From Chlamydiota bacterium (GTDB lineage: Bacteria > Auribacterota > JACPWU01): 32,000 nucleotides of DNA. Below are positions 1 through 26,896 of the stretch, piece after piece. Each line of letters opens with the position of its first letter. Position 1 is the stretch's first letter. The translations under genes and the position numbers were made by a program. The notes below the pieces were generated by a model that saw nothing but the letters and a program-made list of their open reading frames with translations, had not been told where the DNA came from and made no database searches. The DNA lies in the NCBI GenBank assembly GCA_016196885.1, contig JACPWU010000021.1:1-32000 (forward strand), in the 5' to 3' direction.

Positions 1-76
1 GCTCCCTGTGCGGTCGCGGCTCGCCTGATCATGGTCGGGCCTCCCTTCGAGTCCCAGTCGCCTCTAGGAAATAACA

Positions 77-386
77 TGGGGCGCCTGGGACTCGAACCCA
101 GCACCCACAGCTTAAACATGGTGTTAGCTGCATGTCGCCATGCAGATCAGACTATCCCATCATCCCGCTGAAGCGGGATGTCCCGATTATAGTCGTTGAA
201 CCTTTCCGCCAACGATCTGTGGCGGACTTGGCTGCGGATTGTCTGCACCCTCGGCTTGTTACCCGGTCTATTGGGTACCTCGGGATACACCAGATTTCCC
301 CGCAAGTTACGGGATTTTCAGCTATCAGTCGCCTGATAGTGGCCCTTCGATTAAGGCTGTTGCTCTACCTGATGAGCTAGCGGCTC
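77..386 (-). tRNA. tRNA-Lys(UUU)-like gene split by a group I intron in the anticodon loop (exon 1 = 386..354, exon 2 = 116..77)
   Basis: Minus strand reads GAGCCGC-UA-GCUC-AUCAGGUA-GAGC-A-ACAGC-CU | 237-nt insert | UUUAA-GCUGU-GGGUG-CUGGG-UUCGAGU-CCCAG-GCGCCCC-A. The D arm (GG in loop), T arm (UUCGAGU loop) and 5-bp anticodon stem ACAGC/GCUGU are canonical. The ligated loop CUUUUAA gives anticodon UUU. No CCA is encoded. Caveat: the acceptor stem pairs at only 5 of 7 positions. Confidence 0.7.
117..353 (-). ncRNA. Group I self-splicing intron (237 nt, no ORF)
   Basis: All read on the minus strand. P1: exon GCCU pairs with internal guide GGGC, giving a U.G wobble at the splice site. P2: CUAUCAG-GCGA-CUGAUAG with a GNRA loop. 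P4/Q-type element: UUGCGGGGAAA ... CCGCAGCCAAGUCC. P6: CCGCC...GGCGG. P7/P3 R-type element: GGUUCAACGACUAUAAUCGGGA. P8: CAUCCCGC-UUCA-GCGGGAUG. S-type element: GGGAUAGUC. P9: CUGCAUG-GCGA-CAUGCAG. The terminal residue is G (omega-G, plus-strand position 117). The R/S/Q elements resemble the Tetrahymena and Azoarcus cores as I remember them. Confidence 0.85.
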
Positions 387-400
387 TTTAAAACAAGGCT

Positions 401-490
401 CAAAAGTTCAAAGGTTCAAAGGTTCAAAGGAAAAAAAATCCGAACTGCATCAACCTTTGAACTTTTGAACCTTTAAACCTTTGAACCTTT
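401..490. repeat. Periodic-arm hairpin A (8-nt unit) between frr and the intron-containing tRNA
   Basis: Left arm 401-430 reads caaaagttc/aaaggttc/aaaggttc/aaagg. Right arm 453-490 reads cctttgaa/cttttgaa/cctttaaa/cctttgaa/ccttt and is its complement. The loop is A-rich and contains AAAATCC (435-441). Confidence 0.85.
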
Positions 491-492
491 TT

Positions 493-1053
493 CTAAACTT
501 GTGCAAGTTCTTTTTCTTTATGTACTAAAATCTCATCTATTTTCTTAATAAAATCATCCGTCTTGACCTGAACCTCTTTTTCAATGCGAAAGAGATCGTC
601 TTCGGTAATTTTGCCCTCTTTCTGACCCTTCTTCACGAGTTCGTTCATTTCACGCCGGGTGTTTCTTAAATTGACACGGGCTTCCTCCGCCATGTTTTTC
701 ACCACCTTTTTAAGCTCGTTGCGGCGCTGCTCGCTCAACTCAGGCACTTGAATGCGAATGATTTTGCCTTCCAATCTAGGCACAAGACCTGATTCGTTTT
801 TGTTCAAGGCCTTCATCATTTCTTCAATGGCCGTCACATCCCAAGGCTGAATCACAAGGGTCCGATGCTCCGGAACGGTGATCCCAGCCAGTTCTTTCAA
901 TTTGGTGGGCGTTCCATAATAAGAAACCAGAATATTTTCAACCAAGGCAGGTGTCGCCCGTCCTGTACGCACCCCCGCCAACTCGACTTGAAAAAATTCA
1001 ATGGTTTTACCCATTTTATCTTTGATCTCTTTCAATACTTTTTCTTCTACCAT
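493..1053 (-). CDS. frr: Ribosome recycling factor
   Basis: 186 aa, typical RRF length and sequence (ELAGVRTGRATPALVENI, LSEQRRNELKK). ATG is preceded by GGGAGGG. It sits in the conserved rpsB-tsf-pyrH-frr order. Confidence 0.95.
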   Translation of the reverse strand: MVEEKVLKEIKDKMGKTIEFFQVELAGVRTGRATPALVENILVSYYGTPTKLKELAGITVPEHRTLVIQPWDVTAIEEMMKALNKNESGLVPRLEGKIIRIQVPELSEQRRNELKKVVKNMAEEARVNLRNTRREMNELVKKGQKEGKITEDDLFRIEKEVQVKTDDFIKKIDEILVHKEKELAQV

Positions 1054-1057
1054 AAAG

Positions 1058-1783
1058 TTATCCCTCCCGCACCAGGGTTCCTATTTGTTCTCCTAAAATG
1101 ACCTGCCTAAAATTAGTCGGACTCCACATATTGAACACAATAATAGGAATGTTGTTTTCCATGCACAAAGAAATGGCCGTCGCATCCATCACCTTCAGCC
1201 GCTTGTTCAACACCTCAATGTATTTTAATTCTTCATATTTAACCGCCTTGGGGTCTAAACGAGGATCCGCAGAATAGACGCCGTCCACCTTGGTGGCTTT
1301 TAAAATCACCTGGGCATTCATTTCACTGGCCCGAAGAGCGGCTGTGGTGTCTGTTGAGAAATAAGGATTGCCAGTCCCTCCGGCAAAAATGACCACCCTT
1401 CCTTTTTCCAAATGGCGCATGGCCCGTCTTCGAATGTAAGGCTCGGCAATTTTTGCCATTTCAACGGACGTTTGCAAGCGAGTTGTGACACCGCTTTTTT
1501 CAAGGGCATCTTGAAGAGCCATGCCATTGATCACGGTGGCAAGCATCCCCATGTAATCCGCCGTGGTTCGATCAATCCCGCTCGCACTTTCGCTCATTCC
1601 GCGAAAAATATTACCCCCTCCAATCACAATCGCAAGCTGAACACCCAGTTCTTTCACCTCTTTAACTTGCTGGGCAATGGTCAGAACGGCTTTGGGATCC
1701 ACACCATAGGACTTATCTCCCATAAGGGTTTCACCGCTGAGTTTTAAGATGACGCGATGGTATTTGGGAGTTGGCTTAGACAT
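1058..1783 (-). CDS. pyrH: UMP kinase
   Basis: 241 aa with amino-acid-kinase fold motifs ([36 protein letters not shown]). Located between tsf and frr. Confidence 0.95.
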
Positions 1784-1871
1784 ACGACGAAACCGAGTGA
1801 CAAACGACCTGGCTGCGCCTCAACCCAATGTCGAGACAGCGAACAACGAAAAACTGTTCAAAGACTGTTTT

Positions 1872-2471
1872 CTAAAGACTTTCACCAAGTTGATATCGAA
1901 TGAATCGGCGAAGGACCATGTTCTCACCCACTTCAGCAATTTTTGATTGAATCAATTGCTTGATGCAAATCGATGGGTCCTTAATAAAGGGCTGATCCAA
2001 GAGGCAAACCTCTTGATAGTGTTTTCCTAATTTTCCCTCCAAGATTTTCTCCAGAGCCTCAGGACTTTTACCCGAAAACTCCGCGCGAGCTTCTTTCTTC
2101 CAACCTTCTACCTTCTCGAGAGGGATCTCGTCCCTGGAAACATATAAAGGCGCCGGATGAGCGCCTGCAATTTGCAAAGCAACGTCTTTCGCCAATTCTT
2201 GAAAACCTTTGTTTCTCGCCACGAAATCCGTTTCGCAATTGAGTTCCAGGAGGACACCGATTTTTCCTCCCATGTGAATGTAAGAAAAAATGACGCCTTC
2301 CGTGGTGGCCCTTTGAGCCTTTTTCTGAGCGATGGCCGCTCCTTGACTTTTCAAAATCTCAATGGCGCCTGACAAATCACCTTTTGACTGGGCGAGGGCC
2401 TTTTTACAATCCATCACCCCTGCATTGGTTTTCTCGCGAAGCTCTTTGACCAAATCACTTGTGATCTGCAT
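1872..2471 (-). CDS. tsf: Elongation factor Ts (short form)
   Basis: 199 aa. The N-terminal UBA-like signature LVKELREKTNAGVMDCKKAL is present. AGGAG lies upstream of the ATG, and the gene directly follows rpsB. Confidence 0.93.
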   Translation of the reverse strand: MQITSDLVKELREKTNAGVMDCKKALAQSKGDLSGAIEILKSQGAAIAQKKAQRATTEGVIFSYIHMGGKIGVLLELNCETDFVARNKGFQELAKDVALQIAGAHPAPLYVSRDEIPLEKVEGWKKEARAEFSGKSPEALEKILEGKLGKHYQEVCLLDQPFIKDPSICIKQLIQSKIAEVGENMVLRRFIRYQLGESL

Positions 2472-2476
2472 GAAAC

Positions 2477-3235
2477 CTACTCCTGTGCTGTCAATTCTTC
2501 TTGCTCTTCTGGGACGACGCTCTGAGGCTCTCCCCCGGAACGATCTTTCGAAAGGCCCTTGGCCTCCAGAATGGCTTCTTCGACTTTTCCCACAATCAAG
2601 GAAATGGTTCGAATCGCATCATCATTGCAGGCGATGGGGTAGCTCACGGGATCCGGATCACAATTGGTGTCAATCAAAGCAATAATCGGAATCCCCAAAC
2701 GGCGAGCCTCTTCAACCGCAATCTTCTCACGACTGGGATCAATCACAAAAAGCACCCCGGGCTTGCGATCCATCTTTTGAATGCCGCCCAAATTCTTCTT
2801 CAAACGGGCCAGTTCACGTGTGAGGCTGGCCGCTTCTTTCTTCGACAAGCGGTCCATGACGCCATCCGTTTTAAGTTTTTCAATCTCTTCCAAACGGCTT
2901 ACACTTTTGCGGATGGTTTCCAGATTCGTCAAGGTTCCGCCCAACCAGCGCTCCGTGACCCAGAAAACTCCACAATTTTGGGCCATGGTTTTGACAATCT
3001 CTTTGGCCTGTTTCTTGGTCCCCACCACCAAAATGGATTCCTTCTGGAGAACACAATTTGCTAGAAAATCGCAGGCCACCTTGAGTTGATTCACTGTCTT
3101 TTGTAGATCAATGATGTGAATCCCATTGCGCTTCTCAAAAATAAAACGCTTCATCTTGGGATTCCAGCGACTGGACTGATGCCCAAAATGGGCCCCTGCT
3201 TCTAAAAGCTCTTTGACACTGACTTGAACAGACAA
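2477..3235 (-). CDS. rpsB: 30S ribosomal protein S2
   Basis: Carries the S2 signature LLEAGAHFGHQSSRWNPKM. I place the start at TTG 3235 because AAGGAGG lies 5 nt upstream. The ORF-track start at 3265 is also TTG but has no Shine-Dalgarno sequence. Confidence 0.93.
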   Translation of the reverse strand: MSVQVSVKELLEAGAHFGHQSSRWNPKMKRFIFEKRNGIHIIDLQKTVNQLKVACDFLANCVLQKESILVVGTKKQAKEIVKTMAQNCGVFWVTERWLGGTLTNLETIRKSVSRLEEIEKLKTDGVMDRLSKKEAASLTRELARLKKNLGGIQKMDRKPGVLFVIDPSREKIAVEEARRLGIPIIALIDTNCDPDPVSYPIACNDDAIRTISLIVGKVEEAILEAKGLSKDRSGGEPQSVVPEEQEELTAQE

Positions 3236-3264
3236 ACGATCCTCCTTTTGTTTCAAACAACTCA

Positions 3265-3345
3265 AAAATCCGAAACTTTCTGATTCTTTGAATATTTGAA
3301 TTTAGAATTTGTTTCGTGCTTCGGATTTCGTGCTTATTTTTAATT
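3265..3345. repeat. Periodic-arm hairpin B in the rpsB leader
   Basis: AAAATCCGAAAC (3265-3276) can pair with gtttcg..cggattt (3311-3328). The region has a 7-nt stutter (tctgatt/ctttgaa/tatttga/atttaga and tttcgtg/cttcgga/tttcgtg/cttattt). It is AT-rich, so the stem is weaker than in the other hairpins. Confidence 0.55.
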
Positions 3346-3369
3346 TTGTTCTTTCCCAAAAGCCTGACT

Positions 3370-3397
3370 ACTATACCACAGCGCATTTCAAATGCAA
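3370..3397 (-). promoter_or_regulatory. Candidate sigma-70 promoter of the rpsB-tsf-pyrH-frr operon
   Basis: Minus strand reads TTGCAT (3397-3392), a 16-nt spacer ending in TGg (extended -10), then TATAGT (3375-3370). This predicts a leader of about 125 nt that contains hairpin B. Confidence 0.5.
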
Positions 3398-3419
3398 GGC
3401 GAAAAGAGCACTTTCCAAT

Positions 3420-4091
3420 TTAATGCATCGCAGCCTTTTCATTGACCTTTTCTAAAGCAGCCTGAAGCTCTATCCTCTTCATCTCTAAATAGTTAGAATC
3501 TTTCAGATGTTCCACTTGAACAGCCTCTCCCATCACCAAACGCGCCCGATTGTAGGGACGAGGGATTTTGAAACGGTCCCAGGTTTCCAAAACTTTTACA
3601 TGTTCACAATCATAGGCGACTGGGAGAATGGGACAATGGCTTGCCGAGGCCAAGGCCACCACGCCCATTTGGACGTAACCTTTCGGGCCGCGCGGGCCAT
3701 CCGGCGTCACGGCCAAATCAAAACCCTGATCTATGTAACGCTTCAAACGTAACAGCGCTGGATATCCTCCCCTGGAAGAGGAACCCCGTACCACTTCAAA
3801 CCCAATTTCCTCAACAAAATCACTGACGATTTGACCATCCCGACTCAGGCTAGCCAAGACGCATATTTTTTTGTGCCGGGCCAAAGATAAGTAGCAAAAA
3901 GGCATGAGCATGAGTTGACAATGCCAAAATGCAAAGAGAATGGGACGCCCTCGTGATCGAGCTAAAAAATAATTTTCATCTCCCTCTATTTCCCAAGGGG
4001 TGGTGTGGCCGACCCAACCCATGTAGCCCAGACCCATGCGAATCAGAAGGGTCCGTAGAGGAGGTGATTTAAGAAGCAAATTGAACTTCAT
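3420..4091 (-). CDS. DUF374-family protein (lysophospholipid-acyltransferase-like, LPS-cluster associated)
   Basis: 223 aa with motifs FAFWHCQLMLMP, SRDGQIVS, VRGSSSRGG and AVTPDGPRGP, which are typical of DUF374. It overlaps the msbA 3' end by 23 nt. Confidence 0.75.
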   Translation of the reverse strand: MKFNLLLKSPPLRTLLIRMGLGYMGWVGHTTPWEIEGDENYFLARSRGRPILFAFWHCQLMLMPFCYLSLARHKKICVLASLSRDGQIVSDFVEEIGFEVVRGSSSRGGYPALLRLKRYIDQGFDLAVTPDGPRGPKGYVQMGVVALASASHCPILPVAYDCEHVKVLETWDRFKIPRPYNRARLVMGEAVQVEHLKDSNYLEMKRIELQAALEKVNEKAAMH

Positions 4092-5772
4092 ACAATTTCC
4101 GATACAAGCCTTCTTTTTGAATCAGCTCATCATGCGTCCCCGTTTGAATCATCCGGCCCTGATTCAAAACCAATATTTGATGCGCGTTTCGAACCGTGGA
4201 CAAACGATGCGCAATCACGAGCACCGTGCGGCCCTCCATAAGCCTTGTTAAGGCCTCCTGAACGGACCTTTCCGACTGAGAATCTAAAGATGAAGTAGCC
4301 TCGTCCAAAATAAGAAGCCTGGGATTTTTCAAAATGGCCCGGGCAATTGCAAGCCGTTGTCTTTCTCCCCCCGAAAGCTTCACACCTCTTTCCCCCACCA
4401 AGGTGTCATACCTTTCAGGAAGCGCCATGATAAAATCGTGGGCATTGGCCGCTTGAGCTGCTTCTATGAGTTCACTAGAATTCATTTCGACACGACCATA
4501 AGCGATGTTGGCACGAACGGTGTCATTGAATAAAATGACCTCTTGAGTGACCAGGCCCATTAAACCTCTTAAAGATTTAAGCGCGATCGAACGAATGTCT
4601 TTTCCATCTATTTTAATTTCTCCCTGCTGGGGATCGTAGAAACGGGCAATCAAATTGGCCATGGTGGATTTTCCAGAACCACTGGGCCCGACCAGCGCCG
4701 TGATTTCTCCCGCCTTCATCTCAAAATGAATGTCTCTGAGAACCCAATCTTCTTCATATCGAAAAGCCAAATTTGAAAAGCGAATCCCTTCACGAATATC
4801 ACTCAGTTCAAAAGCACCCTTCTTGTCTCTAACCGCAGGGACTTCATCCAGAATTTCAAAAACTCTGACGCCCGCTGCATTGGCTTGTTGAACAAGGCTA
4901 TTGACCTTTCCTATTTTTTTGAAAGGTTCATAAATCAAATAAAGCGCTGTCATGAAAGAAAGAAATGTATCTAGACTCAAATGCCTGGCTCCATACCAAA
5001 AGCAAAAAGCTGCTCCGCAAGAAGCCACCACTTCAATGACGGGTCGGGTAAGCTCTGCCGCACGCACGGCATCCATCATGGATTTAAAGAAACGACGATT
5101 CTCTTGAGAAAACCGATTGATTTCATACTCTTCCATTGAAAAAGCCTTCACCACACGAATCCCACTGATCGTCTCATGTAAAATAGATGTTAAATCTCCG
5201 ACCTGCGTTTGGGCTTGGCGAGTTGCCTTTCGAACCCTTTTCCCGAATTTAACAATTGGATAAACGGCCAGGGGAAAAATAAACAAAGACATGCTCGCCA
5301 AAAAAGGGTCGAAATAAAAAAGGGTCCCCAAGAGTCCTAAAAGGCTTAAGGGTTCTTTCACCATATCTGTAATAGCGTTTGAAATCCCATACTGAATCAC
5401 AGACACATCATTGGTAACACGAGAAATGAGATGACCTGTTTTTCGATGCGAAAAAAAATCAAGCGACAAATCATGAAGATGACGGTACAAACGATCTCGA
5501 ATATCCGAAACAGCCTTTAGCCCCACCCAATTCATGTAATAGGCCTGCCCAAAATCTGAAAGTCCTCTCATCAAGAAAACAAGCAAGATCAAGCCTGGAA
5601 CCATAAAAAACATCGAGGGGCTCTTGCTTACAAAAGCCACTCTCAAAACAAATTTCAAAACCCACACAACCGCTGTATTAAAAATAGAAAAAAGGATCAT
5701 GCACAAAAAGGCCGTCGCTAAGCGAGGCCAATAGGGTTTTACAAATTGCAAAAGTCGTCTATACGTTGTCAC
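4069..5772 (-). CDS. msbA: ABC transporter permease/ATPase, MsbA-like lipid A exporter
   Basis: 567 aa. It has an N-terminal six-TM domain, Walker A GPSGSGKST, signature LSGGERQRLAIARA and Walker B LLILDEATSSLD. The GTG start overlaps the lpxB stop (GTGA). Confidence 0.82.
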   Translation of the reverse strand: MTTYRRLLQFVKPYWPRLATAFLCMILFSIFNTAVVWVLKFVLRVAFVSKSPSMFFMVPGLILLVFLMRGLSDFGQAYYMNWVGLKAVSDIRDRLYRHLHDLSLDFFSHRKTGHLISRVTNDVSVIQYGISNAITDMVKEPLSLLGLLGTLFYFDPFLASMSLFIFPLAVYPIVKFGKRVRKATRQAQTQVGDLTSILHETISGIRVVKAFSMEEYEINRFSQENRRFFKSMMDAVRAAELTRPVIEVVASCGAAFCFWYGARHLSLDTFLSFMTALYLIYEPFKKIGKVNSLVQQANAAGVRVFEILDEVPAVRDKKGAFELSDIREGIRFSNLAFRYEEDWVLRDIHFEMKAGEITALVGPSGSGKSTMANLIARFYDPQQGEIKIDGKDIRSIALKSLRGLMGLVTQEVILFNDTVRANIAYGRVEMNSSELIEAAQAANAHDFIMALPERYDTLVGERGVKLSGGERQRLAIARAILKNPRLLILDEATSSLDSQSERSVQEALTRLMEGRTVLVIAHRLSTVRNAHQILVLNQGRMIQTGTHDELIQKEGLYRKLYEVQFAS

Positions 5773-6899
5773 TCATTCACCCTTTTTAAAATAATCTCTG
5801 CAGCCCTCGCACTTGCCCCAGGCTCACCCAATTTCTGAAGAACTTCTCGCAAGGCTTGCCGAGTTTCATTCAAAACCTTTTCATTCGAAAGAAAATCCTT
5901 TGTCATTTGAGCCAAATGTTCGGATTTAAAATCCTCCTGCAAAAGCTCTGGAACAATTTTTTGGGCGGCCACCAGATTCACGAGTCCCACAAAAGGGACT
6001 TGAATCAAACGACGAATTAAAAAAGCCGTTATCCGCGAAACCCGGTAAAACACAATCATGGGAACACCGCAGTAGGCCGTTTCCAAGGTTGCAGTCCCAG
6101 AACAGACCCACGCAAATTGAGAAGCGAGAAGACATTCTCTCATACGGCCTCGATAAAGATGCATAAAATCCTCACCCTTCGTGCTTCGACGAATTTCCTC
6201 ATAAAGGTAATCCGTCGCACAAGGAACAAGAAAACATATTTTGGGAAACTCGCGCCTCATTTGGCGGGCCGCCTCTAGGAGCACGTCCCAATGACGATGA
6301 ACTTCGTTCACGCGGCTGCCGGGCAAAATAGAAATTCTAGGATAAAATTTTTCTAGCTCCTTTGACATCCCTGAGGATGTTTGTTTTTCCCCTTCATCCA
6401 CCAGCGGATGACCGACAAAATCAACCGCCATGTTGTTTCGCTCATAAAAATCTTTTTCAAAAGGTAAAATCACCAACATGCGGTCTATGATTTTCTTCAT
6501 GAGCCCTAAACGCCTCTTTCCCCAAGCCCAAACTTGAGGACTCACATAATAAATGACTCGCACCTTTTTCCGGTGTGCCCTTTTCGCAAATCTCAAATTA
6601 AATCCTGGAAAATCAATCAACACAACTGCATTGGGTTTCCACTCATCGAGCGTCCTTGAAAGTTCTCTAAAAACACGTCTGAACTCGCGATAATGTTTCA
6701 CCACCTCCAAAAGTCCGATCACGGCCCACCGGGTCATGTCCTCCAAAATCTGAACCCCATTCTGACGCATCAAGGACCCACCCACACCCAAGAGTTCGAC
6801 GGAAGGATCTTTTTGAATGAGCGCCTGGGCAAGCTGTGCACCCATTTTATCTCCCGAGGGCTCTCCTGCTAAAATCATGATTCTAGGATTTGAGTTCAT
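5769..6899 (-). CDS. lpxB: Lipid-A-disaccharide synthase
   Basis: 376 aa with the N-terminal ILAGEPSGDKMGAQL motif and a GT-B fold length typical of LpxB. It lies within an lpx cluster. Confidence 0.9.
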   Translation of the reverse strand: MNSNPRIMILAGEPSGDKMGAQLAQALIQKDPSVELLGVGGSLMRQNGVQILEDMTRWAVIGLLEVVKHYREFRRVFRELSRTLDEWKPNAVVLIDFPGFNLRFAKRAHRKKVRVIYYVSPQVWAWGKRRLGLMKKIIDRMLVILPFEKDFYERNNMAVDFVGHPLVDEGEKQTSSGMSKELEKFYPRISILPGSRVNEVHRHWDVLLEAARQMRREFPKICFLVPCATDYLYEEIRRSTKGEDFMHLYRGRMRECLLASQFAWVCSGTATLETAYCGVPMIVFYRVSRITAFLIRRLIQVPFVGLVNLVAAQKIVPELLQEDFKSEHLAQMTKDFLSNEKVLNETRQALREVLQKLGEPGASARAAEIILKRVNE

Positions 6900-6913
6900 G
6901 ATAAAACCAGTGC

Positions 6914-7005
6914 AAAATGAAAAGTGTAAAATTAAAAATAAAGAAAAAAAGGTTTACTGAAATCGTTCTCAATTTTTCATTCTTAATTTTTCATTCTTAA
7001 TTTCT
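6914..7005. repeat. Periodic-arm hairpin C (AT-rich); right arm overlaps the oxidoreductase 3' end
   Basis: Left arm reads aaaatga/aaagtgt/aaaatta/aaaataa. The right arm is a 14-nt duplication, ttcattcttaattt x2 (6969-7005). The arms are only partly complementary. Confidence 0.5.
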
Positions 7006-7904
7006 TTCAACACTTCCATCGCCACCTCTAAAGCCATTTTTCCATGCTCCCCCGACACCAGAGGGTTTTTCGCATGACGCACGCAATCCATAAAAGAAGC
7101 GATCTCCAACTTTAAGGGTTCGGCCTTTTCAAATTTAATATTTTTCCAAGAAATTTTCCCATTTTCCTTGTGATAAATCTTCCCCTCCTGCCTTAAATAA
7201 TCCAAAGAAATGTAGGCGTCCTCTTGAAAAACCCGCACCTTTCTCATGCGCTCCACAGAAACCCGGCTCGTGGTCAAATTGGCAATACAGCCATTTTCAA
7301 ATTCCAATCGGGCATTGGCAATGTCTTCAAAGGCGCTGAGGACGGGAACTCCCACGGCACGAATTTCTCTTAAAGGGGAAGGGGTCAACTGCAAAATCAC
7401 ATCAATGTCATGAATCATCAAATCCAAAACAACCCCCACATCCGTTCCCCGCTCAGGAAAAGGGCTCAGGCGGTGACACTCGATAAAGCGCGGCGAGGTC
7501 AGAATTTTCTGGAGCGCCTGAAAGGCGGGATTGTAACGCTCAATATGCCCTACTTGGAGAATCAGTCCCTTTTGCTGAGCCTTTTGGATCAGTGCCGCTG
7601 CCTGTTCTACCCTTTGGGCAATCGGTTTTTCCACAAGGACATGAATCCCCCGGTCCAAAAGAAATTCTGCCACTTTGAAATGATCCACCGTCGGAACTGC
7701 CACACTCGCCAAATCAATTCCCGAAGGCAACCCTTCCAAACTTTGTAAAGGCTGCGCATGATAGCGATGGCCCCACTTAGAAACCTTCTCCCAATCAAGG
7801 TCCACAAGCGCGACCAATTCAACATCTGAAAGCTCAGAATAAATTCGGGCATGTTCTTTACCCAAATAACCAACCCCTACGACCACCGCTTTAAGTTTTT
7901 GCAT
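6969..7904 (-). CDS. Gfo/Idh/MocA-family NAD(P)-dependent oxidoreductase
   Basis: 311 aa with an N-terminal Rossmann motif VVGVGYLGKEH and the EKP motif (VLVEKPIA) of the family. It is embedded between lpxI and lpxB. Confidence 0.85.
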   Translation of the reverse strand: MQKLKAVVVGVGYLGKEHARIYSELSDVELVALVDLDWEKVSKWGHRYHAQPLQSLEGLPSGIDLASVAVPTVDHFKVAEFLLDRGIHVLVEKPIAQRVEQAAALIQKAQQKGLILQVGHIERYNPAFQALQKILTSPRFIECHRLSPFPERGTDVGVVLDLMIHDIDVILQLTPSPLREIRAVGVPVLSAFEDIANARLEFENGCIANLTTSRVSVERMRKVRVFQEDAYISLDYLRQEGKIYHKENGKISWKNIKFEKAEPLKLEIASFMDCVRHAKNPLVSGEHGKMALEVAMEVLKEIKNEKLRMKN

Positions 7905-8730
7905 TTTCTCGCCCCAATCCCACCATGCTCAATCCCCACCGATTCGCTTTTTCAAAAAAAAATTTTCGATCTAAAATTAATGTTTTTCCTGCCTCTACCC
8001 CTAAAAGAGATGCCTTGGCTTTTCGAAGCACCCGCAATGTCTTGAGCCCAATCACCGGAACATCATAGCGCATGTCTTGATGGGACCGTGCCATTTTCAC
8101 CACCACCGCCCCTTTTCCTGCCAATTTTCCGCCTCTTAAAATGGTAGCATCAGTCCCTTCCATACCTTCCAAAGCAACCAGAACTCCCTTTTTCACCACC
8201 ACCGTCTGCCCCACCTCTAAATCCGCTAGGACCTTTGCCACTCTCAAACCATATTTCAAATCTTGCCAGTCTTCATCTGATGGCGCATGATTTGTTAAAA
8301 CACCCTCCTCGGCCAATTCACTTTTTAAAAACAACGTGGACTCAAGAAAATGGACTCCCTCTTTCTCCCATTTTTGAATCAATCCCCCCAAAAGACTTTT
8401 GGCATCTTTCTGGGGAGAACCCTTAAAAAATTTCAACCCCTCCACATCAAATTTCAAAGCCCTCAAAGCGAACTTATGTGGAATTTGACCCGCCATCACC
8501 CAGTCATGGACCTGACTCTCTTTTAAAATTTTCAACAACTTTCCAATTTCTCCGATGCCGATCCAGAACATCTGATCCACAAATTTTCCAAATGAGCGAT
8601 CGGTAATCCCCAGAAATCCAATTCCGATTATTTTCTTCACCCCTTGCTGACGGGCCGACTCAGCCACTGAAAGAGGGAAATCTCGATTTCCAGCAATAAT
8701 ACCTAGGGAGTCTATGTTATGCATTTTCAT
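7891..8730 (-). CDS. lpxI: UDP-2,3-diacylglucosamine diphosphatase LpxI (DUF1009)
   Basis: Has the N-terminal LGIIAGNRDFPL motif and a C-terminal ALEGMEGTDATILRG ... DMRYDVPVIGLKT ... LGVEAGKTLILD pattern typical of LpxI. The start is trimmed to ATG 8730, because the ORF-track TTG at 8802 lies inside hairpin D. Confidence 0.8.
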   Translation of the reverse strand: MKMHNIDSLGIIAGNRDFPLSVAESARQQGVKKIIGIGFLGITDRSFGKFVDQMFWIGIGEIGKLLKILKESQVHDWVMAGQIPHKFALRALKFDVEGLKFFKGSPQKDAKSLLGGLIQKWEKEGVHFLESTLFLKSELAEEGVLTNHAPSDEDWQDLKYGLRVAKVLADLEVGQTVVVKKGVLVALEGMEGTDATILRGGKLAGKGAVVVKMARSHQDMRYDVPVIGLKTLRVLRKAKASLLGVEAGKTLILDRKFFFEKANRWGLSMVGLGRENAKT

Positions 8731-8780
8731 CTTAATTTTTTGTGACAATCCTTGAGGAGGTTTCGGTAAGCCGTATGAAT

Positions 8781-8855
8781 AGGGGCAAGGGTCAAGAGTC
8801 AAGAAAAAACACTAAATTGATTATTCTTGACCCATGACCCATGACCCTTGCCCCT
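8781..8855. repeat. Periodic-arm hairpin D (7-nt unit)
   Basis: Left arm reads aggggcaagg + gtcaaga x2. Right arm reads tcttgac/ccatgac/ccatgac/ccttgcccct. The outer 14 bp are perfectly complementary, and the loop is A-rich. Confidence 0.9.
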
Positions 8856-8892
8856 CGCAAGAGAAATACAAACAACACTTCACCCTACAACA

Positions 8893-9663
8893 TCATCTTC
8901 CAATCCCTCTTTCCGAAGCTCGAACAAATTCAAGAAGATGCTCCATTTCAGGGGAAGTTGGAATTTCTGCTTCGACTTTCGAAACGGCATGGGCCACGGT
9001 GAGTTTGGACCGAAAAAGAATCTTAAAAGCCTTTTTAATGTTTTTTTGCAATTCTTGATTCATGCCGCTGCGTGTGAGTCCCACACCATTGATGGTACGC
9101 ACCACCGCGGGATGACCATCCACCATCGCATAGGGAGGAACATCCTGAACGACTTTCGAACATCCACCCACAATGGCCAGGGTTCCAATCTTACAAAACT
9201 GATGAACAGCAGAGAGTCCCCCAATGACGGCCCCATCTTCAATATCCACATGTCCAGCCAATGTCCCCACATTGGCAATAATCACGCGACTTCCCACCCG
9301 GCAATTGTGTGCCACGTGGGCATACGCCATGATCCAGCAATCTTCTCCCACAAGGGTTGCTGTGTCTTCACCCGTCCCCCGATTGATGGTCACAAATTCA
9401 CGAATGACGGTCCGGGCACCTATCCGAGCGTAAACCTTTTCACCTTTAAATTTTTTATCCTGCGAGTCGCTTCCCACAGAGGCCCAAGGGTAAATACGCA
9501 CATCCGTCCCGATGAAGGTATCGCGCCCAATCACCACATGGGAATCAATGAAAGACCCCTTCCCAATCTCTGAGCCTTCCCCTACAATCGAATAAGGACC
9601 TATCTGGACATCAGAATCAATGCGTGCAGTGGGATGAATAATCGCGGTTGGATGAACGGACAT
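8893..9663 (-). CDS. lpxA: Acyl-ACP--UDP-N-acetylglucosamine O-acyltransferase
   Basis: 256 aa. It has the N-terminal IHPTA motif, hexapeptide (LbH) repeats and a helical C-terminal domain. It is adjacent to fabZ. Confidence 0.92.
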   Translation of the reverse strand: MSVHPTAIIHPTARIDSDVQIGPYSIVGEGSEIGKGSFIDSHVVIGRDTFIGTDVRIYPWASVGSDSQDKKFKGEKVYARIGARTVIREFVTINRGTGEDTATLVGEDCWIMAYAHVAHNCRVGSRVIIANVGTLAGHVDIEDGAVIGGLSAVHQFCKIGTLAIVGGCSKVVQDVPPYAMVDGHPAVVRTINGVGLTRSGMNQELQKNIKKAFKILFRSKLTVAHAVSKVEAEIPTSPEMEHLLEFVRASERGIGR

Positions 9664-9687
9664 GATTTAAACCCTTTAAGAAAAGCC

Positions 9688-9760
9688 CACAGTCCACGGT
9701 CCATAGTCGATAGAAAAATAAAAAATCCCTTCGAACTATTGACCATGGACTATGGACTGT
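9688..9760. repeat. Periodic-arm hairpin E (7-nt unit); right arm supplies the last fabZ codons
   Basis: Left arm reads cacagtc/cacggtc/catagtc/gatag. Right arm reads ctattga/ccatgga/ctatgga/ctgt. The loop contains AAAATCC (9722-9728). Confidence 0.88.
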
Positions 9761-10205
9761 TATGTTCCAGCTCCACCAAACCAAACATCAAATCTGCCTC
9801 GGCCACCAATTGATCTTGGACAAAGGCACTTCCTTTAACCATCCCTGTCTTACTGCGAGCCCGAAGCAGTTCAACTTCAAAACGCAATTGATCGCCTGGG
9901 ATCACCGTCTTTCGAAATCTTGCATTGTCAATCGCCGTAAAATAAGCAAGTTTGCCTTTCGCCTCAGCCCTGCTTAAAAGCATGACCCCCGCCACTTGGG
10001 CCATGGCTTCCAAAATCAATACACCCGGCATCACGGGATGCCCAGGGAAGTGACCTACAAAGAAACTTTCAGTGATCGTCACATTTTTCAAACCCACGGC
10101 CTTTGTGTCTGTCATTTCAAGCATCCGATCTACCAAGAGAAAAGGATAGCGATGAGGCAAAACTTTCTGAATGGCCACCGTATCTAAAATACCATCCGCC
10201 ATCAT
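9750..10205 (-). CDS. fabZ: 3-hydroxyacyl-ACP dehydratase FabZ
   Basis: 151 aa with motifs [12 protein letters not shown] and [27 protein letters not shown] lies upstream of the ATG. Confidence 0.95.
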
Positions 10206-10214
10206 AAATCCTCC

Positions 10215-11081
10215 TTAAGACCTCGCAAATTCGTGAATGGAACCTTCTTCAACCAACGCACTTGCCAATCGCTTGGCAAATTCAAAATTCATCGCATGAC
10301 CTGATTTGATGGCCATCACATGGGCCTTGAAAGGTTTTCCCAAAAGATAAAGATCCCCCATCAAATCCAAAACCTTATGCCGGACGCATTCATCCGGAAA
10401 CCTCAAACTTTCCTTGCTGAAAATGGCATCCTTTCCCACCACCACGGCATTGTCCAAACTCCCGCCCTTGATCAAACCTTGCTTCATCAAATATTCCACT
10501 TCATGATAAAAACAAAAGGTCCGACAAGGAGCGATTTGAGAAATAAAATTTTCTTCGTTCACTTCCACCGTATAAAATTGGTCCTTGATCTTGCTGTCCT
10601 TGTAAGACAGGGTAAATGAAATGCGGCAGCTCTCGGAGGGAATGGCCACCAAAGACGCATCACCCTCCTCGTAATAAACGGGTCTGGACAATCTCAAACA
10701 CGTTTTGAGAGACGCCTGCTCTTCGATCCCACTGGAGCGAATCATTTCGACAAAAGCCAGAGAACTTCCATCTCCCACGGGAGGTTCATTCGCCTCCATT
10801 TCAATCAGCAAATTGTCAATCCCACACCCCATCAAGGCCGCCAAAACATGTTCCACCGTATGAACCTTCACACCCTTTTCCTCAATGGTGGTCCCGCGTG
10901 TAACTCCTGTCACATTCGAGAGCCTCGCCTTCACCACCGGGCGCTCAGGAAGATCCATGCGAACAAATTCGATGCCCGTATTGGGAGGGGCAGGCAAAAA
11001 AGTAATGCGTGTTTTATTGCCCGTATGAAGGGCAATGCCTGAATAACTCACTTTTTTAGAAATCGTTTTTTGAAATGGCAT
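10215..11081 (-). CDS. lpxC: UDP-3-O-acyl-N-acetylglucosamine deacetylase
   Basis: 288 aa with motifs GIALHTGNK, TVEHVLAAL, FCFYHEVEYL and HKVLDLMGDL. Confidence 0.93.
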   Translation of the reverse strand: MPFQKTISKKVSYSGIALHTGNKTRITFLPAPPNTGIEFVRMDLPERPVVKARLSNVTGVTRGTTIEEKGVKVHTVEHVLAALMGCGIDNLLIEMEANEPPVGDGSSLAFVEMIRSSGIEEQASLKTCLRLSRPVYYEEGDASLVAIPSESCRISFTLSYKDSKIKDQFYTVEVNEENFISQIAPCRTFCFYHEVEYLMKQGLIKGGSLDNAVVVGKDAIFSKESLRFPDECVRHKVLDLMGDLYLLGKPFKAHVMAIKSGHAMNFEFAKRLASALVEEGSIHEFARS

Positions 11082-17429: not shown

Positions 17430-17446
17430 AACTTCCCCTTTATTAT

Positions 17447-17530
17447 GTACCGATGTGCCGATGTGTCAATGCGCCGATGTGCCGATGAAATCAATCATTT
17501 TTTGACATCGGTACATTGGCACATCGGCAC
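17447..17530. repeat. Periodic-arm hairpin H (8-nt unit)
   Basis: Left arm reads ccgatgtg/ccgatgtg/tcaatgcg/ccgatgtg/ccgatg. Right arm reads gacatcgg/tacattgg/cacatcgg/cac. Confidence 0.9.
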
Positions 17531-17537
17531 AATTTAC

Positions 17538-20955: not shown

Positions 20956-21046
20956 AGAAGTCAGAATTCAGAAGTCAGAATAATAAGGAGGTTATTTTAT
21001 TCTGAATTCTGTCTTCTTACTTCTGTTTTCTGACTTCTGAATTCTG
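20956..21046. repeat. Periodic-arm hairpin L (7-nt unit); right arm overlaps the glmU 3' end
   Basis: Left arm reads agaagtc/agaattc/agaagtc/agaataa. Right arm reads ttattct/gaattct/gtcttct/tacttct/gttttct/gacttct/gaattct. Confidence 0.9.
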
Positions 21047-22297
21047 TTGTAATATCTTCGCCGGCACTCCCACCACCACAGCTCCATCTGGAATATTTTT
21101 CCCGCGTGTCACCACAGCACCCGCTCCCGTCACCGCCCTTTTCCCCATCTGCACAGGTGCCACAAAAATGGTCCCGCTTCCGACAAAAGCCCCTTCATCA
21201 ATCTGAGTTGTGTGTTTGGCCTCCCCATCATAATTGGCCGTGATCGTTCCTGCGCCTACATTCACATGAGGACCCACTTGGGCATTCCCCAAATAGGTCA
21301 AATGCTTTGCCTTCGTCCCCTCTCCTATTTGAGAAGCCTTTACCTCCACAAAATTTCCAATCTCCACGCGGTCGGATAAATTTGTCCCCCCGCGAATATG
21401 GGTAAAGGGTCCAATCTCGCATGAGCGACCGATCTTCACCTCTCCTTCAATGACCGTAAAAGGATGAATCACCGAATCTTGTCCAATCTCTACCGTTTCA
21501 TCAATGAAGGTAGAGGCAGGATCTATCAGCGTCACTCCCTGATACATCAAGTTTTCCAGCACTCTTTGACGCAAGACTTTTTCGGCTTGCGCCAACTGAG
21601 CCCTGGAATTGATGCCCATGATCTCATGGGCATCATCCACACAATACGCGGATATGGGCTTATTTTGAAGAGCTAAAATCTGAATCGCATCGGTCAAATA
21701 AAGCTCATTTTTCTCCGGATGAATTTGAATTTCATTCAGCGCATCCTGAAGGGCCGGCCAATCAAAACAATAGGTTCCGGAGTTAATTTCCTCAATGGCC
21801 TTTTCGTAAACCGTTGCGTGAGCCTCTTCTACAACACTAATCACTTCATCGTTACCACCGCGGACAATACGGCCATAACCGGTTGGATTAGGAAGCCTCC
21901 CTGTCAAAATCGCTCCATAGTATTGATCTTGCTCATGTTTTTCAACAAATTTTTTCAAAGTTTCTAAACGAAGGAGTGGGGCATCCGCACATAAAATTAA
22001 AACATCCCCCTGCCATTTTTTTAAAAAGGACCGAGCTGCCAGCACGGCATGCGCTGTCCCGAGGGGTTTTTCTTGAACTGCAAATTCAAAACCGGCGGGT
22101 AACTCTTTCTCAAGGGCCTCCCCTTGAGGACTCACAACCACAATTTTTTTCTCCAGAGGTAAACCCCCACACAGCTCTGCACTACGGCGAATCAAAGACT
22201 TTCCACATACTTGATGAAGCACCTTGGGAATAGAAGATTTCATCCTCTTGCCCTCTCCCGCCGCTAAAATAATGGCGATCATGCCTTTTTTCTCCAT
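21017..22297 (-). CDS. glmU: Bifunctional GlcNAc-1-P uridyltransferase / GlcN-1-P acetyltransferase
   Basis: 426 aa with the N-terminal LAAGEGKRMKSSIPKVLH nucleotidyltransferase motif and a C-terminal LbH acetyltransferase domain. It sits in a glmU-prs-ctc-pth order. Confidence 0.9.
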   Translation of the reverse strand: MEKKGMIAIILAAGEGKRMKSSIPKVLHQVCGKSLIRRSAELCGGLPLEKKIVVVSPQGEALEKELPAGFEFAVQEKPLGTAHAVLAARSFLKKWQGDVLILCADAPLLRLETLKKFVEKHEQDQYYGAILTGRLPNPTGYGRIVRGGNDEVISVVEEAHATVYEKAIEEINSGTYCFDWPALQDALNEIQIHPEKNELYLTDAIQILALQNKPISAYCVDDAHEIMGINSRAQLAQAEKVLRQRVLENLMYQGVTLIDPASTFIDETVEIGQDSVIHPFTVIEGEVKIGRSCEIGPFTHIRGGTNLSDRVEIGNFVEVKASQIGEGTKAKHLTYLGNAQVGPHVNVGAGTITANYDGEAKHTTQIDEGAFVGSGTIFVAPVQMGKRAVTGAGAVVTRGKNIPDGAVVVGVPAKILQQNSEVRKQK

Positions 22298-22427: not shown

Positions 22428-22498
22428 TGCCCGGTGGTGTAATGGTAACACAGCAGTTTTTGGAGCTGCTTTTCTAGGTTCGAATCCTAGCCGGGCAG
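22428..22498 (+). tRNA. tRNA-Gln(UUG)
   Basis: Reads TGCCCGG-TG-GTGT-AATGGTA-ACAC-A-GCAGT-TTTTGGA-GCTGC-TTTT-CTAGG-TTCGAAT-CCTAG-CCGGGCA-G. The acceptor stem is a perfect 7 bp and the anticodon is TTG. No CCA is encoded. Confidence 0.9.
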
Positions 22499-26798: not shown

Positions 26799-26896
26799 CT
26801 CAAATCCAAATATCAAAAATCAAAGATCAAAATTAAGGAAGAATTCAATTTAATGGACTCCTTAATTTTGGATTTTGAATTTTGGACTTTGATTTT
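26799..26896. repeat. Periodic-arm hairpin N in the divergent purN / response-regulator spacer
   Basis: Left arm reads ctcaaatc/caaatatc/aaaaatc/aaagatc/aaaatta/agga. Right arm reads tccttaa/ttttgga/ttttgaa/ttttgga/ctttgat/ttt. Confidence 0.85.

Follow-up and report, generated by a model that had tools for sequence, protein, structure and literature searches.

A lysine tRNA gene at positions 77–386 of a contig filed under Chlamydiota is split within its anticodon loop. The locus raises the question of whether the interrupting sequence is a genuine group I intron, whether its host tRNA and insertion site are new among bacteria, and whether the gene as assembled belongs to the genome that surrounds it. 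The analysis covered the first 32,000 nt of the contig, and this whole stretch of DNA is referred to here as the window.

A group I intron in the anticodon loop of tRNA-Lys(UUU)

An initial annotation, made from the letters of the sequence and without naming the strand, had proposed a group I intron between U33 and U34 of a tRNA-Lys(UUU). The intron-split gene lies on the minus strand, and both Rfam and ARAGORN bear the proposal out. Rfam family RF00028 matches positions 363..128 (minus strand) over the full model (1–253) with 73.4 bits and an E-value of 4.9e-17, compared with a gathering score of 50 bits for this family, and Intron_gpI is the sole non-tRNA family at or above threshold in the Rfam scan of the window. 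In intron mode, ARAGORN defines a 73-nt tRNA-Lys(ttt) at 386..77 (minus strand) with a 237-nt intron at 353..117, and prints the insertion position as 33–34 (‘agcct-Intron-tttaa’). Run without intron mode, it reports only a tRNA-Gln at 22428 in the window. The exons spliced in silico are again read by ARAGORN as tRNA-Lys(ttt), with the anticodon UUU and the discriminator A73. The gene is made up of the following parts.

354..386, minus strand: 5′ exon, tRNA-Lys(UUU) positions 1–33 (ARAGORN), comprising the GAGCCGC strand, D arm, anticodon stem, C32 and U33
117..353, minus strand: group I intron of 237 nt with no ORF (RF00028; helices placed by hand, with covariation in 28 sequences)
348–346, minus strand: P10 guide, GAA
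345–342, minus strand: P1 guide, GGGC, pairing as G30-C, C31-G, C32-G and U33.G
339–322, minus strand: P2, with a GCGA cap
314–310 with 185–181, minus strand: P3
304–201, minus strand: P4–P6
194–190 with 154–150, minus strand: P7
180–161, minus strand: P8, 8 bp
145–128, minus strand: P9, with a GCGA cap
117, minus strand: terminal G of the intron
77..116, minus strand: 3′ exon, tRNA positions 34–73, comprising the UUU anticodon, the T arm CTGGG/CCCAG, the GCGCCCC strand and A73

The intron features proposed earlier are all present on this strand at the coordinates given: P1, the GCGA-capped P2 and P9, the 8-bp P8, the terminal G, the GAA that faces UUU of exon 2, and the core strings CCGCAGCCAAGUCC, GGUUCAACGACUAUAAUCGGGA and GGGAUAGUC. 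The description of the tRNA as a complete cloverleaf has to be withdrawn. The ARAGORN drawing and comparison with the family place two mismatches, A2.C71 and C4.C69, in the acceptor stem of the window gene, which arise because its two exons derive from different tRNA-Lys genes, as set out below.

The minimum free energy structure of the intron is more stable than those of all 200 shuffled sequences (z = -4.1). The tRNA-fMet intron of Synechocystis carries a homing endonuclease ORF; within the 237-nt intron of the window there is no endonuclease ORF, and the ORFs that overlap it are all short. The longest of these, antisense at 132–380, spans 82 aa, and neither it nor the ORF running off the window at position 1 has a record as a called gene. 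The segment 353..117 (minus strand) is a genuine group I intron, compact and without an ORF.

In the pre-tRNA, the guide GGGC would pair with exon nucleotides G30–U33 as P1, in which the U33.G wobble would mark the 5′ splice site. Free guanosine bound in P7 would then attack after U33. The terminal G (117) would subsequently replace this guanosine, while GAA beside the guide would hold U34–U36 in P10, and ligation of the exons would yield the loop CUUUUAA. The structure underlying this scheme is shown by covariation among relatives, and we infer catalysis from standard group I chemistry.

The intron family and its catalogued precedents

Relatives were sought in a genome collection with the pattern GATAGTC, gap, G + YTTAA, T arm. 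The scan returned 17 stretches, 13 of which hold an intron-split tRNA-Lys: five from Omnitrophota MAGs, five from Planctomycetales MAGs and one each from an Elusimicrobia bin, an unclassified bacterium and a delta-proteobacterium. The anticodon is CUU in 2 of the 13, those of the delta-proteobacterium (L012) and the unclassified bacterium (L005); L005 and the Elusimicrobia locus (L014) are both cut at the contig start. Several of the MAGs with relatives stem from the ‘NC_groundwater’ project. A family-specific pattern detected the intron family on 25 metagenome contigs, and the combined scans place the same family at the same site of tRNA-Lys(UUU) in about 40 public loci. Complete members have an intron of 209–371 nt, with no ORF, after U33 of tRNA-Lys(UUU). 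The family resides in tRNA-Lys(UUU) between U33 and U34, chiefly in Planctomycetota and Omnitrophota.

The nearest relative found for the window intron is only 86% identical to it. An exact 24-mer from P6 of the window intron is absent from the JGI metagenomes, and viral contigs contain no instance of the family core pattern. Searches of plasmids gave no match, and phage matches were confined to T4-like phages, over 39 nt of generic group I core.

For the analysis of covariation, 28 distinct precursors, drawn from Omnitrophota and Planctomycetales MAGs and from metagenomes, were aligned, the helices were defined from the window sequence, and pairs were counted. Standard pairs occupy 97.1% of 1,719 cells, as opposed to 32–48% when the 3′ partners are slid by 1–3 columns. 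Changes on both sides occur in 22 pairs, and the observed covariation score was reached by none of 500 shuffles. Covariation is seen in P2, P3 (U-A to C-G), P5b, P6a, P8 and P9; P4, P5, P6 and P7 are invariant and fully paired in the family alignment. All 28 sequences have the splice-site U.G pair, and the terminal G is invariant. P10 comprises 2 bp, with U34-A and U35-A/G each found in all 28. Judged from this alignment, the family has a real, selected ribozyme fold.

Two family loci show incomplete introns. At L041 (2623–2848), the 209-nt intron is without the 3′ strand of P6, the 5′ strand of P7 and the P3′ segment (GGTTCAACGACTATAATCGGG); this intron has probably decayed and lost the ability to splice, within an otherwise intact tRNA-Lys gene. 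At L014 (1–190), the contig begins inside a family intron, so that the 5′ exon is missing, and the 3′ exon ends in GCGGCTC. This is the acceptor type of the Chlamydiae host described below, unlike that of other family members.

The tRNA-Lys host and the 33/34 site had both been put forward as new, on the understanding that all described bacterial tRNA introns lie within or 3′ of the anticodon. A published catalogue shows otherwise. A screen of 80,413 bacterial genomes identified 5,292 intron-split tRNA genes and expanded the 4 earlier host/site classes to 21 (Williams 2020, bioRxiv 10.1101/2020.01.27.920355). Its nomenclature counts loop positions, with Leu.3Ug standing for CUU/AAAA, which puts position 2 between U33 and nucleotide 34. 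Leu.3Ug, Arg.5Ug, fMet.2Ug and Ile2.5Ug make up the four classical classes, and the seed alignment includes Dba165.Lys.2Ug, Mle24.Lys.3Ug and Mpe6.Lys.4Ug (bioRxiv 10.1101/2020.01.27.920355). A Lys.2Ug class is thus on record in addition to the roughly 40 loci found here, and its 33/34 site is shared with the classical fMet.2Ug. The fMet intron, whose site was taken from the nomenclature and seed alignment of the same source, interrupts CU/CAUAA at 33/34, 5′ of the anticodon. By the definition given there, the window gene is of the Lys.2Ug class: a tRNA-Lys with the intron after U33, U at -1 and a terminal G. Neither the host tRNA nor the insertion site is new, and the window intron joins a catalogued type. 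A 2017 report of ‘group I introns’ of 22–49 nt in cyanobacterial tRNA-Lys, tRNA-Arg and tRNA-Gly was rejected as a further precedent, these sequences being too short for group I ribozymes.

In the seed alignment, Dba165.Lys.2Ug shares with the window intron the Lys isotype, insertion after U33, U at -1, a terminal G and the lack of an ORF, but it belongs to another intron lineage, with an additional hairpin pair after P7 and the exon context GACU/C. It resembles the L012 intron, found in the tRNA-Lys(CUU) of the delta-proteobacterium and sharing 62% identity with the window intron. The host of the window family, unlike that of the Dba165 lineage, is the tRNA-Lys(UUU) of PVC-group bacteria. The introns at L012 (6808–7130, minus strand) and L005 (1–112) represent this second, unrelated group I lineage at the 33/34 site of tRNA-Lys(CUU), which implies at least two colonisations of the site. 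The L012 intron scores 98.9 bits on RF00028, has the additional hairpin pair after P7 and matches Dba165.Lys.2Ug by eye.

In the same source, fMet.2Ug is likewise a self-splicing anticodon-loop intron inserted at 33/34, but has a CAU initiator host and the core AAUCCCGAGCC/GGUGUAGAGACUA, compared with AAUCCGCAGCC/GGUUCAACGACUA in the window family. Compact, ORF-less group I ribozymes of ~200–300 nt also interrupt the anticodon loops of tRNA-Leu(UAA) (Leu.3Ug), Azoarcus tRNA-Ile(CAU) (Ile2.5Ug) and tRNA-Arg(CCU) (Arg.5Ug); their P1 involves the anticodon stem, and GNRA loops cap P2 and P9. They differ in being inserted after position 34 or 36, in their hosts and in their core variants; their splicing has been shown, whereas that of the window family is predicted. 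The family core reads AAUCCGCAGCCAAG ... GGUUCAACGACUAUAAU, as against a classical bacterial tRNA-intron consensus of AAUCCCGAGCCAAG ... GGUGUAGAGACUAGAC in Williams’ alignment.

The native loci have a recurrent gene neighbourhood. Downstream and on the same strand, Pfam-confirmed genes encode a GIY-YIG protein of ~83–86 aa (12 of 19 loci), archease (15 of 19) and RtcB (14 of 19). These lie 0–2.5 kb downstream at L007–L011, L013, L014, L018, L019, L024, L027, L029, L032, L035 and L038, and the cluster is absent beside the host’s intron-less tRNA-Lys and beside the CUU-type loci L005 and L012. No description of a tRNA-Lys / GIY-YIG / archease / RtcB cluster was found in the searchable literature. 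For the rtcB genes of L027/L028, L032 and L038, tblastn matches fall into two blocks ~1.5 kb apart (at L027, +1497–1805 and +3324–4496), which suggests an intein or other insertion inside rtcB.

Two sources in one tRNA gene

The genome surrounding the gene was reached through its frr protein, which led to the MAG GCA_016178005.1, whose proteins are labelled ‘Chlamydiae bacterium’ (contig JACOUD010000001.1, 121,133 nt). Window positions 353..11053 are 100.000% identical to this reference over 10,701 nt, with 0 mismatches, and the identity (loci L001/L020) ends at the 5′ splice site, window 353. The tRNA-Lys(UUU) of the reference is uninterrupted, with a perfect GAGCCGC/GCGGCTC acceptor stem and a GTGGG/CCCAC T stem; after it come an AT-rich flank and tRNA-Glu, in that order. 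The window flank at 1..76 has no match to the flank in L001. The GC content falls from 63% in 1–116 and 54% in the intron to 42% in the adjacent host DNA, against an overall value of 46%. By source, the segments are as follows.

395..490, no strand assigned: host intergenic hairpin between frr and the tRNA, made of inverted arrays of the 8-mer GGTTCAAA (TRF)
354..386, minus strand: 5′ exon as in the host (Chlamydiae MAG), matching the intron-less tRNA-Lys of GCA_016178005.1 at 100.000% identity
353..382, minus strand: join zone of the two sources, 30 nt, tRNA positions 5–33 and the next T
77..116, minus strand: 3′ exon in the foreign version, identical to the 3′ exon of Omnitrophota locus L019
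1..76, minus strand: foreign 3′ flank, 63% GC, with the motif CTGGGACTCGAAGGGAG at 57–41

The 3′ exon of the window carries CTGGG/CCCAG and GCGCCCC, as opposed to GTGGG/CCCAC and GCGGCTC in the host’s own gene. Acceptor stems are paired at 7 of 7 positions in all 32 complete relatives (GGGCCGC/GCGGCCC, n = 25; GGGGCGC/GCGCCCC, n = 6; GGGTCAT/ATGACCC, n = 1, L012), as well as in the intron-less gene of the host. The window gene combines GAGCCGC with GCGCCCC, which pair at 5 of 7 positions, and this combination is unique to it. The 5′ exon of L019 differs from that of the host only at positions 2 and 4, and the two gene types therefore share 30 identical bases; this join zone is identical in the host tRNA-Lys and in the intron-bearing genes of the GGGGCGC type (comparing the 5′ exons of the window, L001 and L019).

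The flank motif CTGGGACTCGAAGGGAG is found at the same offset in L010/L045, L035 and L043, and the stretch that precedes it co-varies with the GCGCC acceptor type. The intron, exon 2 and flank thus constitute one native piece from another locus. No alternative GGGGCGC 5′ exon, of the kind a split or trans-spliced gene would use, occurs elsewhere in the window. A native gene would have both exons and flanks continuous with the host; here, the host sequence gives way to a 3′ exon, a flank and a GC content that are foreign to it. The segment from frr through tRNA position 33 is that of a 46%-GC Chlamydiae MAG with an intron-less tRNA-Lys, and the intron, 3′ exon and 76-nt flank are those of a GC-rich locus whose 5′ acceptor strand is expected to be GGGGCGC. 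As it stands, the window gene is probably not a real gene of any single organism.

The flank also contains a tRNA-linked element. Its first part, ~19 nt beyond the tRNA, is the complement of the tRNA’s T-loop/acceptor 3′ strand (..CTGGGACTCGAAGGGAG..), and the element closes with an exact copy of the tRNA’s last 18 nt. It is found at window 1–57 (minus strand), where it is cut by the window start, and at L010 3111–3248, L035, L043, L032 and L001 4090–4240. The L043 copy consists of a 14-bp hairpin alone; those of L010, L032 and L035 hold 100–130 nt with compensatory changes. Behind the tRNA-Glu of the host MAG is a homologous element (GGGATTCGAATAGGAGGCCCGAC ... GGAGGCGCCGAATCCC...), in which 27 nt of the tRNA-Glu 3′ end are repeated. 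Searched against Rfam at a permissive threshold, the elements of the window and four loci matched no YrlA, tmRNA or other family, and gave only chance miRNA-type hairpin matches. An att-type footprint, a MITE and a structured RNA are all conceivable identities for the element. Also after tRNA-Glu, in L001/L048 (L020 11375–19700), an apparent defence island flanked by tRNA-Glu 3′-end repeats encodes a 263-aa AbiEi-like antitoxin homologue, type I restriction-modification subunits, a DUF1016/YhcG protein and RecQ.

On the host side of the junction, the hairpin at 395..490 is present identically in L001; it is probably the frr terminator, outside the intron. It is one of several host intergenic hairpins with arms of tandem 7- or 8-mers (395–490, 17445–17531, 20956–21048 and 26802–26896). 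In the first of these, four to five copies of GGTTCAAA face five copies of TTTGAACC, and a second such hairpin pair follows tRNA-Lys in L001. These tandem arrays yield spurious miRNA-precursor matches in Rfam.

Assembly join or recombinant

The best explanation is that a real intron of the family is present here in a copy that is a hybrid of two sources, and that their join is an artefact of metagenome assembly, a reading given a probability of about 0.6. A join made by the assembler through the 30 shared bases at a contig end is the most likely cause of the hybrid, and probably the correct one, a real recombinant being less likely. The position of the junction is central to this argument. The proteins frr, S2, LpxB, LpxI and BamA have two NCBI accessions each, from two Chlamydiae MAGs, the second of which holds them on a contig of 83,037 nt. 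This second MAG has locus tags HYZ67_, and its BamA is MBI3266181.1. Window 353 corresponds to position 38,706 of the 121-kb contig, and this reference contig ends at window coordinate 82,780; an 83-kb contig spanning this stretch would therefore have to begin no more than a few hundred bases from window position 1. The reference has the order frr, tRNA-Lys, tRNA-Glu and the 263-aa protein. In the second MAG, the 263-aa protein is on a separate contig of 31,185 nt (MBI3266950.1, compared with MBI3266167.1 for frr). Length arithmetic and protein accession numbers suggest a contig-end position for the hybrid. Two runs assembled independently by Logan are also interrupted to either side of the tRNA region and match the reference at 100% identity elsewhere, and intron-bearing relatives occur in the same groundwater project. 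The runs SRR12113387 and SRR12113417 are among those that contain this genome at 100% identity.

Several observations are less easily reconciled with an assembly join. An overlap of 30 nt is short for assemblers that finish at large k, and the search for the supposed donor yielded no intron relative closer than 86% identity. The host genome has a related motif, GGAGGCCCGAC, in the flank behind its tRNA-Glu, and such tRNA-linked elements therefore exist in the host lineage. In L014, moreover, an intron-bearing tRNA-Lys is found with the host-like GCGGCTC acceptor strand.

This last locus also favours a biological hybrid, a distinctly less probable account in which the Chlamydiota genome gained the intron, 3′ exon and flank from a tRNA-Lys locus of the Planctomycetota/Omnitrophota type. 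The transfer could have proceeded by gene conversion or homing with one-sided co-conversion, or by integration of a tRNA-targeting element. The switch between sources falls at the intron insertion site, within a 30-nt identity able to support recombination. The small GIY-YIG gene is just downstream in 12 of 19 native loci, and a nuclease cutting intron-less alleles would give such a one-sided pattern. Further support comes from att-like direct repeats of tRNA 3′ ends, which flank small elements beside tRNA-Lys in L010/L032/L035 and occur also beside the host tRNA-Glu. Opposed to this account are the mismatches A2.C71 and C4.C69, found in 0 of 32 relatives, and the apparent contig-end position. 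The sequence does not return to that of the host on the 3′ side, where there is no homology to resolve a conversion; the same population has an intron-less gene in another MAG, with 100% identity around it; and the phage and plasmid searches revealed no phage or plasmid carrying the segment. A real junction, in which an ORF-less intron with its 3′ exon and flank moved into a Chlamydiota tRNA-Lys and left a mismatched hybrid tRNA, is rated unlikely. If true, it would be an inter-phylum intron transfer caught shortly after the event, and one that may be driven by a free-standing GIY-YIG nuclease (‘collaborative homing’ in a bacterial chromosome).

A native, vertically inherited and functional intron-bearing tRNA-Lys(UUU), implicit in the initial annotation, is very improbable. 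ARAGORN accepts the spliced product as tRNA-Lys and the intron core is intact, but the 5′ and 3′ acceptor strands are mismatched, the GC content jumps at the junction, and the 100%-identical genome has an intron-less gene with another 3′ exon and flank. Least credible of all is a chance resemblance or a decayed, non-splicing remnant: decay is known in the family from L041, which is without the P6-P7-P3′ core, but the window copy has a full-length Rfam match (E 5e-17), every family-invariant column intact and all helices paired.

With an assembly join as the preferred reading, it is unsafe to assign the window copy to the surrounding Chlamydiae genome. The case shows conserved tRNA segments bridging different organisms in metagenome assemblies, and a mismatched acceptor stem is what exposes such a join. 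The outcome is a well-supported tRNA-Lys(UUU) intron family of 28 distinct sequences, with strong covariation, in Planctomycetota and Omnitrophota. In its native setting the family heads a conserved tRNA-Lys / GIY-YIG / archease / RtcB gene cluster, where a possible link between intron mobility or tRNA-Lys repair and RtcB could be examined.
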